The notes: generated by a model from the letters alone, not told the origin. A DNA stretch of 64,000 nucleotides from Candidatus Micrarchaeota archaeon (GCA_964643685.1 CAZXTN010000001.1:96001-160000), one strand, 5' to 3'; shown: positions 12,757-58,717, numbered from the stretch's first letter. Made by a program: numbers and translations.

Positions 12757-12801
12757 GCTTCCGTCTCCCAGGCCCAACTTCCTATGGGCGATCGGACAAG
12801 C
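12757..12801 (+). repeat. 10-nt copy of tRNA-Glu 5' end extended into an imperfect foldback hairpin
   Basis: GCTTCCGTCT equals 12827-12836; continues ...GCCCA-ACTTCCTA-TGGGC-GATCGGACAAGC. Confidence 0.6.
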
Positions 12802-12826
12802 CACACAAGGTGCCTTAAAAAAAATT

Positions 12827-12901
12827 GCTTCCGTCTTCTAGCTCGGTCAAGGATGAGGGACTCTCACTCCCTCGACGCGGGTTCAAATCCCGCCGGAAGC
12901 A
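12827..12901 (+). tRNA. tRNA-Glu(CTC), intronless
   Basis: GCTTCCG/CGGAAGC; AGGGA-CT-CTC-AC-TCCCT; GCGGG-TTCAAAT-CCCGC. Confidence 0.95.
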
Positions 12902-12964
12902 CTTAAAAGGAATAAAAAGCAGTGAAGGGTTTAAATCAGAGAAGAGAGTTAAAGAGGTATTAAG

Positions 12965-13408
12965 ATGGTTGATGAATTAGATTTGCAGATTTTAAGTATA
13001 CTTAGGAGAGATGCTAGGTTGTCTTATAGGAAGATAGCTGAGGAGTTAGGAGTAGCTACGGGAACTGTTCAGAATAGGATACAGAAAATGGAGCAGGAGA
13101 AGGTAATCACTGATTACCATGCAGGAATAGATTTAAGTAAATTAGGTTACAACATAGCTGCGATAATTGGAATATGTATTGATAGAAAAGAAGCAAGCAA
13201 AATAGAAAAAAAATTAGTCAAGCATTCAAATGTGTTTGCTGTTTATTCAGTAACAGGAGAGTATGACTTGTTTGTAGCAACAAGATTTAAGACAATGGAG
13301 GACCTTAATAATTTTATAAGAAAGGAATTGTCAAATGAATCAATACTGAAAACAAATACTTTCATAATATTAAACATTTCAAAAGAAACATACACCTTTC
13401 TAAAATAA
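12965..13408 (+). CDS. Lrp/AsnC family transcriptional regulator
   Basis: DELDLQIL..L..DAR.SY..IAEELGV HTH; VTGEYDL RAM domain. Confidence 0.95.
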   Translation: MVDELDLQILSILRRDARLSYRKIAEELGVATGTVQNRIQKMEQEKVITDYHAGIDLSKLGYNIAAIIGICIDRKEASKIEKKLVKHSNVFAVYSVTGEYDLFVATRFKTMEDLNNFIRKELSNESILKTNTFIILNISKETYTFLK

Positions 13409-13426
13409 AGAGGAGAAGATGAAAAA

Positions 13427-13885
13427 ATGGCAGAAGATGATTATATAATATTCGACGCAAAAGTAGGCAAATGGATAAGCATTAAAAAAATAAAAATAAA
13501 ACCAGACACAGAAAAAGCAGACGTAGCAAGACTCCTGGCAAGCATACATGACTCCATGCACAGGAAAATATGGGACTTCTTATCAGAAGAAGTAAACTTA
13601 AAAGAACTTGACGAAATAGCATATGAAATAACAGGAGCACAATTCGACAAGAAGAAAAAAACATACGTCGTAAAAGGAAGAAAATCAGAAGCACAAATAG
13701 CAGAAGCACTTGCAAAATGCAACTCCCCCTCAACGACAAAAAAGATAACAAAGTCTCCTAACAAGTATTACTTAGAAATAGCAAAAACTTACTTGACAAG
13801 AAAAGTCATCGACTTGCTTGGAGTAAGAATAGAAATAGACCCAAAAACAATTGAAAAATACATGGAACAAAAAAGCAAACTATAA
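13427..13885 (+). CDS. Conserved archaeal hypothetical protein (DUF2666-like)
   Basis: I.F.AK.GKW...KKIKI...TEK.DVARLLASI N-terminus resembles my recollection of DUF2666. Confidence 0.55.
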   Translation: MAEDDYIIFDAKVGKWISIKKIKIKPDTEKADVARLLASIHDSMHRKIWDFLSEEVNLKELDEIAYEITGAQFDKKKKTYVVKGRKSEAQIAEALAKCNSPSTTKKITKSPNKYYLEIAKTYLTRKVIDLLGVRIEIDPKTIEKYMEQKSKL

Positions 13886-13951
13886 AAAAAATCCTTTAAC
13901 AATTTCTTTTAAATACTAAAAAACAAACAAAAAATAGATAACACAAAAAAA

Positions 13952-14133
13952 GGGGCTATAGGGTAGTCATCGCTTACATTAAAAAAAAAGCGACTATAAT
14001 GGTCCATCCTTCCGGCTTTGGGAAAATTCTTCTCAACAGAAGAATTTAAAAACAGCCGGGGACCCCAGTTCGAACCTGCAATGAGTAAACTCACTGAGTT
14101 TTTCTCTTGCAAGAGAAAATCTGGGTAGCCCCA
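13952..14133 (+). tRNA. tRNA-Pro(TGG) with three introns: D-loop 13969-13999, 37/38 14023-14053, 59/60 14075-14119
   Basis: Removing three hairpin inserts gives GGGGCTA-TA-GGGTAGTCTGGTCCATCC-TT-CCGGC-TTTGGGA-GCCGG-GGAC-CCCAG-TTCGAAT-CTGGG-TAGCCCC-A. Confidence 0.9.
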
Positions 14134-14160
14134 TTAACAACTTCTCTAAAAAGAATAAAG

Positions 14161-14280
14161 TTAATTAAACAGAATACACAAGGGTTCCTTCTGCAACTAT
14201 GTTTACTATGCGTTTTGCAGAAGTTTCTTCTGCAACTGCGCTTGCTATGCGTTTTGCAGAAGTGGGGGAGCTTGGAAAAC
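14161..14280 (+). repeat. Degenerate copy of tRNA-Leu(TAA) upstream flank and 5' end, interrupted by two tandem 36-nt hairpins
   Basis: TTAATTAA..AGAA..CAAGGGT and GGAGCTTGGAAAAC match 14286-14328; units CTTCTGCAA...TTGCAGAAG at 14188-14223 and 14227-14262. Confidence 0.85.
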
Positions 14281-14303
14281 TCCCATTAATTAATATAGAA
14301 CAC

Positions 14304-56468: not shown

Positions 56469-56524
56469 AAGCATAAATAATAAGTCTACTTCTTGTTTTA
56501 AAAAAAACAAAAACCTATAAACAA

Positions 56525-57748
56525 ATGAGTAAAATGAAAGAGTTAATCAGAAAACACGCCTTAAAAAACGCATTAGAACATGAAGGAAAAGCAGCACCAG
56601 GCGCAGTGATAAACAGGGTCCTAGGAGAAAACCCAGAGCTAAAAAAAGACATGAAAACACTAGGACAAGCAGTAAAACAAGAAATAGAAAAAGTAAACCA
56701 AATGACTCTAAAAGAAATAAAACAAGAGCTTGAACAAAAACACCCTGAACTGCTTGAAAAAAAAGACGAAGAAAGAAGAGACTTACCTGAACTGCCAGGC
56801 GACACTTCAAAAGTAGTCATGAGAATGGCTCCAAACCCAAACGGTCCACTGCACTTAGGACACGCAAGACAAGCTATACTCAACTGGTTCTACGTAAAAA
56901 AATACAATGGAAAATACATACTAAGATTCGACGACACTGACCCAAAAAACAAAGTGCCACTAAAAGAAGCATATGACTGGATAATAGAAGACCTAAAATG
57001 GCTAGGCATAAAACCCGACGAAATACTTTACGCCTCAGACAGGCTAGATCTTTACTACAAATACGCTGAAAAATTAATTGAAATGGAAAAAGCATACATC
57101 TGCACGTGCCCACCTGAAAAATTCAGAGAATTAAAAAACAAAGGAGAACCATGCCAATGCAGGAACCTGCCAAAAGAAGAGCAGATGAAAAGATGGAAAA
57201 AAATGTTCACAGAATACAAAGAAGGAGAAGCAGTATACAGAGTAAAAACAGACTTGAAAGACCCAAACCCTGCTCTGCGCGACTGGCCTGGATTTAGAAT
57301 AATTGAAAACAACAAACACCCACGCAACAAAAACGCAAGAGTATGGCCATTGCTTAACTTCAACTCATCAATAGACGACCACCTCACAGGAGTCACGCAT
57401 ATAATAAGAGGAAGAGACCTTGACTTCACAGAACACCAGCAAAAATACTTATACAATCACTTCAACTGGAAATACCCAGAAACAATAGTTACAGGAAAAC
57501 TAAACCTAGAAGGAGCAATACTAAGCTCGTCAGAAATAAAAAAAGGAATACAAGAAGGAAAATACACAGGCTGGGACGACAAACGACTAGGAACGCTAAA
57601 AGCATTGAGAAAAAAAGGACTAAAACCAGAAGCAATAAAACAACTAATCTGGGACCTTGGAGTCAGAAAAAACAACGCCACAGTAACATGGGCAAACATA
57701 GAAGCAGCTGCAAAAAAAGCAGAAAAAAACAAGACATACAAAGAATAA
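56525..57748 (+). CDS. gltX: Glutamyl-tRNA synthetase, apparently without C-terminal anticodon-binding domain
   Basis: APNPNGPLHLGH, LRFDDTDP, DDHL.GVTHIIRG, ILSSS, GWDD.RL.TL; only 407 aa. Confidence 0.9.
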   Translation: MSKMKELIRKHALKNALEHEGKAAPGAVINRVLGENPELKKDMKTLGQAVKQEIEKVNQMTLKEIKQELEQKHPELLEKKDEERRDLPELPGDTSKVVMRMAPNPNGPLHLGHARQAILNWFYVKKYNGKYILRFDDTDPKNKVPLKEAYDWIIEDLKWLGIKPDEILYASDRLDLYYKYAEKLIEMEKAYICTCPPEKFRELKNKGEPCQCRNLPKEEQMKRWKKMFTEYKEGEAVYRVKTDLKDPNPALRDWPGFRIIENNKHPRNKNARVWPLLNFNSSIDDHLTGVTHIIRGRDLDFTEHQQKYLYNHFNWKYPETIVTGKLNLEGAILSSSEIKKGIQEGKYTGWDDKRLGTLKALRKKGLKPEAIKQLIWDLGVRKNNATVTWANIEAAAKKAEKNKTYKE

Positions 57749-57751
57749 ACC

Positions 57752-57759
57752 TTTATAAA
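57752..57759 (+). promoter_or_regulatory. TATA box of the rpl7ae operon
   Basis: TTTATAAA just after the gltX stop, about 95 nt before the ATG. Confidence 0.6.
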
Positions 57760-57852
57760 TGACAAAATTGAAAAAAATAATACTCATTCTCAAAAAAAGC
57801 CAATGAGTTTTAAGCAGCGTAAAAAACTGCAATGAAAAAGGAGGAATTAAAA

Positions 57853-58221
57853 ATGGCAAGCCCATACGTGAAATTCAAAGTACCTAAAGAAATAGCAGAA
57901 CAAACATACCAAGCAGTTGAAAAAGCAAGAGACACAGGAAAAATCAAAAAAGGAGTAAACGAAGCAACAAAAGCAGTTGAAAGAGCAACAGCAAAACTAG
58001 TTGTGATAGCAGAAGACGTAGCACCACCAGAAATAGTTGCATACCTGCCAATACTCTGCGAAGAAAAGAAAATACCCTACACATTCATCCCAACAAAAAA
58101 AGAACTAGGAAAAGCAGCAGGAATAAAAGTAGGAACAACAGCAATAGCAATAATAGAAGAAGGAAGCGCAAAACAACTTGTTGAAAACATTGCAAAAAAA
58201 GTCGAAGAACTGAAAAAATAA
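57853..58221 (+). CDS. rpl7ae: Ribosomal protein eL8 (L7Ae)
   Basis: [30 protein letters not shown]. Confidence 0.97.
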
Positions 58222-58236
58222 GGGGATGAATAAAAA

Positions 58237-58446
58237 ATGGCAGACGACGCAGTACCAGCACAAGTAATGGAAATAATAGGAAAAACCGGCGTACACGGCG
58301 AAATATGGCAAGTCATGGTAAAAATACTAGAAGGAAGAGACAAGGGGAGAATCATAAGAAGAAACGTAAAAGGACCAGTAAGAAAAGACGACTTGCTAAT
58401 GCTAATAGACACAGAAACAGAAGCAAAACCAATAAGAGGACGCTAA
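58237..58446 (+). CDS. rps28e: 30S ribosomal protein eS28
   Basis: [16 protein letters not shown]. Confidence 0.96.
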
Positions 58447-58449
58447 ATA

Positions 58450-58516
58450 GGTGAAAATAAATGAAATCAATCGCAAAAGAAGGATATGAAAGCTCAAGAT
58501 TTCATTTTCTTACTAT
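58450..58516 (+). repeat. Copy of rpl24e RBS/start fused to TCAATCGC...GCTCAA hairpin module
   Basis: GGTGAAAATAAATGAAAT versus GGTGAAAGCAAATGAAAT (58524-58541); stem AAATGAAATC/GATTTCATTT. Confidence 0.8.
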
Positions 58517-58534
58517 AAAGAAAGGTGAAAGCAA

Positions 58535-58717
58535 ATGAAATGTTCATTTTGTAAACAAGAAATACCAAAAGGAAGCGGAAAACTCTACGTGCTGAAAGAC
58601 GGCACTAGATATTACTTCTGCTCCAGCAAATGCCAAAACAATATGCTTAAACTCAAAAGAAAACCAAGAAAAGTAAAATGGATAACAAAAAAGAAAAAAG
58701 AGGAGAAAAAGCAATGA
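58535..58717 (+). CDS. rpl24e: 50S ribosomal protein eL24
   Basis: CSFC...I..G.G, FCSSKC, PRKVKW. Confidence 0.96.
   Translation: MKCSFCKQEIPKGSGKLYVLKDGTRYYFCSSKCQNNMLKLKRKPRKVKWITKKKKEEKKQ

Follow-up and report, generated by a model that had tools for sequence, protein, structure and literature searches.

A mobile-element integration model of tRNA gene disruption has been put forward for Caldiarchaeum (Sugahara et al. 2012, PMC3293823). Here we describe a comparable arrangement in a 64,000-nucleotide stretch of the genome of a Candidatus Micrarchaeota archaeon (G000:C1:96001–160000, hereafter the window), namely short hairpin-rich elements that stand between an intact gene and a second copy of that gene's end, which we call a relic. 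The repeat families are named A, D, E and K (elements) and B (a sub-module), and bare positions are window positions. Both cases show a direct repeat of a tRNA gene fragment beside the intact gene; in both, the locus varies between strains and the same event is linked to the gain of an intron. The Caldiarchaeum insert, however, is 1.8 kb long and encodes a recombinase, whereas the G000 inserts are about 40–280 nucleotides (nt) long and non-coding, occur at many loci including protein genes, and come with no recombinase that we could find. The initial annotation of the window, which knew of no described system in which tRNA fragments, mobile DNA and intron gain come together, thus overlooked a precedent.

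Transposition of tRNA introns in Thermoproteales was reportedly described by Fujishima and colleagues in 2010. Related intervening sequences reportedly stand in different tRNA genes at positions compatible with the bulge–helix–bulge motif (BHB), as does intron family H of G000, found at position 59/60 of six genes. We know of no duplicated exon ends, and of no copies outside tRNA genes, described there. Eukaryotic introners, which Huff and colleagues are said to have treated in 2016, offer a further comparison. Introner elements (PMC9860276) are reportedly non-autonomous DNA insertions that become introns, with target duplication helping to supply a splice site, which likens them to the G000 elements; they differ in being spliceosomal and in having defined transposon ends, whereas G000 has the BHB motif and EndA, no visible transposon ends or transposase, and most copies beside a gene. 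IStrons (PMC4227781) resemble our reading in that a mobile insertion is harmless since it is spliceable, but an IStron combines a group I ribozyme with an insertion sequence transposase, neither of which is present in G000. A limited body of papers, with supplementary files outside its scope, yielded no description of the copy–element–copy arrangement.

Two bacterial or archaeal systems are alike in other respects. The repetitive extragenic palindromic (REP) units and bacterial interspersed mosaic elements of bacteria, which go with REP-associated tyrosine transposases, are short extragenic hairpin units. Like the G000 modules, they form hairpin mosaics between genes, co-oriented with transcription; to our knowledge REPs are not flanked by duplicated gene ends, and they differ also in that no Y1_Tnp gene was found in G000. 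Casposons and the integration of spacers into clustered regularly interspaced short palindromic repeats share with G000 long target duplications and the targeting of tRNA 3' ends. Casposons, however, measure kilobases, end in terminal inverted repeats and duplicate a target of fixed length, and they differ further in that no Cas1 was found in G000.

Element E and the other repeat families

Element E is 88 nt long and folds into three helices, with 90% of cells paired over eight copies. Eleven base pairs were changed on both sides, against 5.2 ± 1.4 in shuffles (none of 500 as high) and 0–2 in slid controls. A covariance model found 16 places in G000, eight of them its training copies, and, among 30 other genomes of the class, eight in G004, which belongs to another genus, one each in G002 and G005, and a weak one in G001; the remaining 26 genomes gave no match. 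Since the same 88 nt element with its conserved fold stands at many unrelated loci, more than 12 of them in G000 and eight in G004, in both orientations, it must have moved. The aligned ends of the eight copies are not complementary, so that E has no terminal inverted repeats. Exact patterns of the first E hairpin and the A hairpin were absent from the other 30 genomes of the class, with a single one-mismatch match in G010. Pattern scans gave one chance match in metagenomes, in a bacterial rpsB-like gene, and in genome contigs two matches that appear to be the E loci of G004 and one chance match in a bacterial coding region; three element patterns had no match in viral contigs.

Module A consists of a hairpin pair, with a compensatory C-G to T-A change in the second hairpin, and stands before 3' relics at nine tRNA ends. 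Module D follows 5' relics ending in the D-loop (Met, a tRNA-Gln, and tRNA-Gly(GCC) twice) and also 36 nt that exactly repeat the beginning of a gene for a synthetase-like protein of 769 amino acids (aa). Its TTTCTTTT..AAAAGAAA hairpin is found behind 5' relics at five loci and within four 59/60 introns. Module K occurs at C3:60213 and at C8:68, and a part of it is found at the Ile locus. The families have reshuffled sub-modules, with the first hairpin of E fused to an A hairpin at 14499–14572 and a B-like piece inserted in four E copies. The sharing of modules with compensatory stem changes, which had been proposed for the window, is confirmed; their inverted orientation, also proposed, is found in the relative G004.

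Module C, a run of four hairpins, is a separate observation. It lies directly behind the 3' end of several tRNAs or their last relic copy (16926–17110, 17937–18060, C6:36625 and C7:12215), and the two window copies agree in all of their first 30 nt. In Rfam, only tRNA was matched in the window and in 13900–18300 (E up to 1), other matches being far below the cut-offs; neither the lettered repeat families nor module C matched an Rfam family. Module B was rejected as a small protein gene: its two window copies share MKSIA..FHFL, but the tandem copy on C5 shifts the frame. A short reading frame running from module K into the relic was likewise discarded, as the frame differs between the two K loci, and the start of the family-H intron, considered as a relic tRNA end, belongs to a hairpin.

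Duplicated gene ends and their geometry

The G000 assembly comprises 695 kb in 12 contigs, with 36% G+C and 92% completeness. Direct repeats of exact 12-mers at a distance of 15–400 nt numbered 249 in this genome, against 17–29 in five block shuffles; many are tRNA ends, and two of the 249 are scaffold artefacts at N gaps. The last 14 nt of a tRNA (at most one mismatch) occurred again within 400 nt downstream in 7 of 17 full-length Rfam tRNAs, compared with 8 of 650 mismatched gene-flank pairs; this test counts the 17 Rfam-defined genes only, and several hand-set gene ends are a few bases off. Around the A and E copies, at least 12 exact nt were common to the 45 nt after and the 450 nt before the element in 19 of 21 cases (null, 7 of 396), and a 20th copy (C6:632) has a copy at the peptide level. 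A peptide screen of 755 crude reading frames, requiring the last nine residues plus stop to recur within 330 nt downstream at 8/10 or better, retrieved eight genes at the 3' end (one an N-gap artefact) and none in a partner-shuffled control; at the 5' end (at least 7/9) it retrieved three genes, with none in the control.

Every site listed in the initial annotation was inspected directly, and nine were judged solid (Table 1). Together with the genome-wide counts, this upholds its observation that a partial copy of a gene end, joined to a hairpin beside the intact gene, recurs at unrelated genes. The 3' copies, two at Leu-TAA and one each at Met and Asp, are all solid. The 5' copies hold for Glu, Leu-TAA, Met and archease. 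At Leu-TAA the relic consists of two pieces, 14176–14185 and 14262–14280, the latter matching the D-arm of the gene over 14 exact nt. The Leu-CAG copies at 16029 and 16095 are weak, with 7–9 nt in common with the gene and no more, and those at Nudix (31586) and rpl24e (58461) do not stand, as the match to the gene start is ATGAAAT only (7 nt) and the Nudix start itself is ambiguous (31650 or 31662). The module of about 55 nt common to the Nudix and rpl24e sites is nevertheless real, with a further tandem pair at C5:42121. Archease, RtcB, Nudix, L24e and S28e were confirmed by Pfam.

Table 1. Relics, modules and neighbouring genes in the window
Feature	Position	Strand	Remark
Relic of tRNA-Glu(CTC) 5' end (position -1 to 10)	12756–12766	+	Same as 12826–12836, 11/11 nt
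tRNA-Glu(CTC), intact	12827–12901	+	ARAGORN, Rfam
Relic 5' part of tRNA-Leu(TAA): acceptor piece, two tandem 39 nt hairpins, D-arm piece ending in D-loop	14176–14280	+	
tRNA-Leu(TAA), one intron	14304–14424	+	Rfam, 45 bits
Module A subtype 1, two hairpins	14425–14479	+	
Leu-TAA 3' end, first relic (T-loop to 2 nt beyond end)	14480–14498	+	19 nt exact repeat
Composite module: E-type first hairpin and A subtype 2 hairpin	14499–14572	+	
Leu-TAA 3' end, second relic and 6 nt flank	14573–14596	+	24 nt exact repeat
Two hairpins, each preceded by 7–9 nt resembling Leu-CAG 5' end	16029–16142	+	Weak copies
tRNA-Leu(CAG), canonical intron and family-H 59/60 intron	16165–16389	+	
Relic of tRNA-Met exon 1, stops at D-loop intron site	16426–16442	+	17/17 identical to 16516–16532
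Module D (TTTCTTTT..AAAAGAAA hairpin, second hairpin, A-rich stretch)	16443–16515	+	
tRNA-Met with D-loop intron	16516–16633	+	
Module A subtype 1	16634–16695	+	
Relic of tRNA-Met 3' end	16696–16715	+	1 mismatch, changed base still pairs
tRNA-Asp with 59/60 intron	17809–17936	+	
Module C, multi-hairpin, second copy 16926–17110	17937–18060	+	30 nt identical start
Element E with inserted B-like sub-module	18069–18200	+	Model R1, 48.6 bits
TGAGG and decayed relic of tRNA-Asp 3' end	18201–18224	+	12 exact nt; BHB half 4/4
Module B before Nudix gene	31586–31661	+	Target copy not established
Relic of archease start (MYELFEH)	32129–32150	+	Against 32200–32221: same 7 residues, 3 silent differences
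Hairpin and spacer, archease relic to archease gene	32151–32199	+	
Module B before rpl24e	58461–58534	+	Target copy not established

The junctions share a geometry. The relic starts 0–7 nt after the element in 19 of 21 A and E copies, and 10 nt after it in two cases with mismatches; between the element and the working copy stands an A-rich spacer whose length varies from about 7 to more than 80 nt. Duplications span 12–38 nt exactly and 16–62 nt overall with mismatches, possibly reaching about 75 nt in one inferred case. Most tRNAs have 16–24 nt and the protein genes 21, 38 and 56 nt, and the duplications at Ile and Arg run to about 62 nt, through a T-rich terminator-like stretch. The tRNA duplications extend from the T-loop to just beyond the 3' end. 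Most tRNA pairs are 100% identical, non-coding flank bases included; the Asp and Leu-CAA relics are decayed, and tandem arrays occur at Leu-TAA and His. In G004, flanking repeats of 17–44 nt accompany seven of the eight E matches, and the eighth has 10 exact nt within a longer near-match. Three of these eight lie antisense just upstream of tRNA-Leu 5' ends, the spacer again facing the gene and the tail facing the relic. That the same side of E abuts the relic whatever the orientation points to an event at the DNA level. Because a duplicate of the neighbouring gene end flanks nearly every copy, the gene stays intact, which agrees with the earlier suggestion that elements outside tRNAs are tolerated since the duplication keeps the gene whole.

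Taken literally, the initial annotation described a non-autonomous, target-duplicating element, that is, a classic cut-and-paste or copy-and-paste miniature transposon with staggered-cut target-site duplication. The part of this idea that stands is the recurrence of modules flanked by duplicates: the elements are multi-copy, non-coding and flanked by direct repeats, and both orientations occur. However, the duplication has no fixed length but varies over 16–62 nt or more, the junctions are asymmetric with a variable spacer on one side only, E ends without terminal inverted repeats, and none of the eight transposase and other enzyme families searched was found. We disfavor this version and regard it as exceedingly improbable.

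The enzyme search covered the whole G000 genome and returned no match over the cut-off for Phage_integrase, Cas1, Y1_Tnp, PF07282 (the TnpB zinc-ribbon family, listed as Cas12f1-like_TNB), RVT_1, LAGLIDADG_3, Resolvase or DDE_Tnp_1. The earlier statement that no mobilising enzyme is visible in the window thus extends to the genome for these eight families, and HUH, tyrosine recombinase and reverse transcriptase genes are among those without a hit over the cut-off. G004 gave no integrase or reverse transcriptase match, and within the family an integrase was found in G002 only. The genes for EndA, RtcB and archease are present in G000, with a single reading frame carrying an EndA domain (170 aa; C1:21078–21338).

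These searches bear on the possibility that the elements are remnants or miniature forms of integrase-driven elements, tiny leftovers with a duplicated attachment core, as in SSV- or pNOB8-type elements. The stretch that begins in the T-loop and ends just beyond the tRNA 3' end is a classic sublocation of integrase attachment, and the duplicated core overlaps tRNA or gene ends in this manner here. Elements that restore the gene they target typically carry a mimic of its end with silent differences. The tandem arrays at Leu-TAA and His are also in keeping with this reading, and the Caldiarchaeum case (PMC3293823) is a precedent. However, Phage_integrase and Resolvase are lacking in G000 and integrases in G004; one module family stands at more than ten different targets, and the copy matches the respective target in each case; at about 100 nt the elements are complete, not random deletion leftovers; and the viral contigs contained none of the three element patterns. 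We therefore consider an integrase origin very unlikely.

The preferred reading, namely short hairpin elements that spread to gene ends with duplication, was also considered against empty and filled sites. The E site after the gene for the 769 aa protein is empty in five of five relatives, all outside the genus; in G002 the stop is followed, after 12 nt, by the same downstream gene. Logan contigs of four public runs, of which X1 and X2 may be source samples, reproduce the duplicated copies, and one record of run X4 covers 16569–16752 without any difference, so that an assembly artefact is unlikely. No joint skipping a module was found in the contigs of the four runs, the listed joints being short-sided and from the tRNAs of other organisms. 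A search for RNA runs that contain window positions 12600–18400 found none. The comparison of empty and filled sites thus supports insertion at one E site, among relatives, and gave nothing among the runs. Scaffold artefacts that mimic local duplication do occur at N gaps, with the same sequence on either side (C4:40577–40676 and C1:199936–200035), and the repeats at C4:40522 and C1:199881–199935, which span them, were excluded.

Intron positions, diverged relics and competing histories

Many G000 tRNAs contain several introns, which explains why ARAGORN counted only 21 tRNAs in the genome. Both in Met and in Leu-TAA of G004, the 5' relics stop at the resident intron's D-loop splice site. The 3' relics begin at position 60; the claim that tRNA copies break at intron positions is therefore borne out at the D-loop and at 59/60. 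An E-like core (model match C1:166548–166636) lies inside a 139 nt 59/60 intron of a tRNA-Gln (C1:166504–166642), whose cloverleaf appears only after in-silico removal of its introns; the other E copies lie outside intact genes. The proposal that the elements occur within tRNA introns as well thus holds for one E-like copy in a true intron. Intron family H occupies position 59/60 at C1:112267, C1:32477(-), C2:13289, C6:17239, C6:36297 and C9:6022(-). A second intron family is common to the Val-TAC gene of G000 and the Met genes of G002 and G004, so that related introns stand in different tRNAs across genera. A multi-intron tRNA at 13952–14133 of the window has a 59/60 intron whose family recurs in Val-TAC and the Met genes of relatives.

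A BHB 3' half (four pairs, TGAA/TGAG with TTCA/TTCG, then a 3 nt bulge) was found at 7 of 12 script-placed junctions, against 2.3% by chance; the scoring covered the 3' half only, and the script failed to place the T-arm at 5 of 17 junctions and mis-registered Leu-CAA. By eye, the five unplaced junctions gave 4/4 twice for His, 3/4 for a Gln-like tRNA, and 2/4 each for Thr and Gln. At three relics there is no BHB half, and the sequence is a plain duplication that begins at T54 or A57.

These junctions could be those of working alternative exons. The element and the first copy would then constitute a BHB intron, EndA and RtcB would splice the T-loop (or an mRNA site) to the downstream copy, and both copies would be used and selected. 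The frequency of the BHB 3' half, the presence of EndA, RtcB and archease, the conserved fold of E, and the intactness of most tRNA relics, in which the single change at Met still pairs, are as this account would have it, as is divergence at protein genes that is only silent. Nevertheless, the first copy already completes the gene, so there is no apparent need for splicing. Moreover, the Asp and Leu-CAA relics are decayed, three relics lack a BHB half, the inner helix by the 5' site is only 2–5 bp by eye, and no convincing BHB was seen by eye at protein-gene sites. We consider this account quite doubtful.

Returning to elements spreading with duplication, several observations weigh against that reading. 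Five protein-gene pairs show 24 silent or stop-to-stop codon differences against three replacements (P ~2e-10 if a duplicate had simply decayed freely); the peptide screen supplied three of these pairs, which introduces an ascertainment bias in the silent-site count. Free decay to 25–30% DNA divergence would not keep the peptide. The silent-diverged relics may either have come from working alleles of a sister lineage or still be expressed. At C2:27380, C2:71304 and C6:469 a gene end is duplicated although no repeat module lies between the copies, and E at C3:26913 in G000, like the single matches in G002, G005 and G001, has no duplication. The BHB half is absent from E tails at protein genes and is therefore not simply part of the element. 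At the precise spot where the Met gene of G000 shows copy, module A and copy, G002 and G004 carry a 59/60 intron, an arrangement that would also fit an intron-first history. As G000 is only 92% complete, the absence of a transposase is not proven, and a virus, a plasmid or the host could supply a helper enzyme. Finally, contig C8, described below, starts inside a copy, and the comparison of filled with empty there is incomplete.

C8 corresponds to C1:75876–101373 at 99.95% identity. One of its ends carries module K and a 56 nt copy of the end of a pilin-like gene, both absent from C1; since C8 starts inside this copy, the polymorphism between C8 and C1 is a lead and not proof. At the other end, C8:25586–25804 holds an intronless tRNA-Gly(CCC) on the + strand, and C1:101374–101560 (window 5374–5560) holds a tRNA-Gly(CCC) on the - strand, about 17% different by eye and with a 59/60 intron, the patch being about 200 nt. 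Separately, contig C12:1–663 duplicates C1:42979–43641 at 80% identity, which suggests a second, related population in the bin.

Such differences could also reflect recombination scars without any element mobility. The modules would be ordinary fast-evolving intergenic or intronic DNA, and recombination between alleles, within or between lineages, would leave a gene-end relic at an illegitimate junction. This explanation would account for relic divergence that is almost all silent, for the most diverged relic, C3:60213, which has a G000-specific tail that relatives lack, and for asymmetric junctions and duplications without modules. The tRNA-Gly cassette, swapped for a diverged, inverted copy between nearly identical haplotypes, the second population represented by C12, and the lack of a transposase are also consistent with it. 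In contrast, scars would not be expected to place the same E at so many unrelated loci in two genera and in both orientations, to leave most tRNA pairs identical down to the non-coding flank, or to keep relics uniformly short. We regard scars alone as unlikely.

Two side observations belong here. At C2:27330–27440, a 53 nt unit is repeated in tandem; its hairpin includes the stop codon of the upstream gene, and the second unit keeps the hairpin by a compensatory change. Over positions 20000–64000 of the window, A exceeds T with a skew of 0.4–0.6 on the + strand, and nearly all long reading frames lie on that strand.

Proposed mechanism and meaning

In our view the elements are real, move in some sense, and are linked both to duplicated gene ends and to intron positions. 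As the overall explanation we lean, with modest confidence, toward lineage-specific short hairpin elements that have spread to gene ends with duplication, via host recombination or replication. The analysis shows the repeat families, the duplications that flank them, the conserved fold of E, an orthologous site that is empty and an E-like copy within an intron; from these we infer the order of events, the mechanism and any splicing as follows. Elements E, A, D and K would be lineage-specific, non-coding, hairpin-rich units of about 40–130 nt, with B as a sub-module, that have probably spread at the DNA level to the boundaries of transcription units, mostly at tRNA genes and at some protein genes. 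Each event would leave the gene intact with its first or last 16–62 nt present twice, the working copy being contiguous with the gene and the relic adjoining, with hardly a gap, always the same end of the element. In tRNAs, the relic would start or stop at the D-loop or 59/60, where the lineage carries BHB introns, and the sequence just before a 3' relic may often form the BHB 3' half with the T-loop, so that the same element could end up as, or derive from, an intron. The spread is most likely due to host recombination or replication rather than to an element-specific transposase; candidate routes are joining by homology at one end and illegitimately at the other, or template switching, in part between lineages that have diverged.

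A bolder version, which we put forward only tentatively, would make these structured, transposase-free elements an archaeal counterpart of introners. Insertion would duplicate the target end, an insertion in the D- or T-loop would be immediately spliceable by EndA and RtcB, and the copy–element–copy loci would be intermediates of BHB intron gain (and loss). Silent-only divergence would then mean that both copies are expressed via splicing.

The arrival of archaeal tRNA introns is an open question; a 2026 Asgard preprint (10.64898/2026.10.13.758758) concluded that "how they arrive remains open". The copy–element–copy loci may show a route. G000 and at least one sister genus have dozens of loci in which an intron-like element stands at intron positions between duplicated exon ends, and some of these events look recent, which makes the route directly testable. 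The arrangement also illustrates how insertions can be tolerated where a 0.7 Mb genome leaves hardly any intergenic space, namely by having the end of the gene duplicated.

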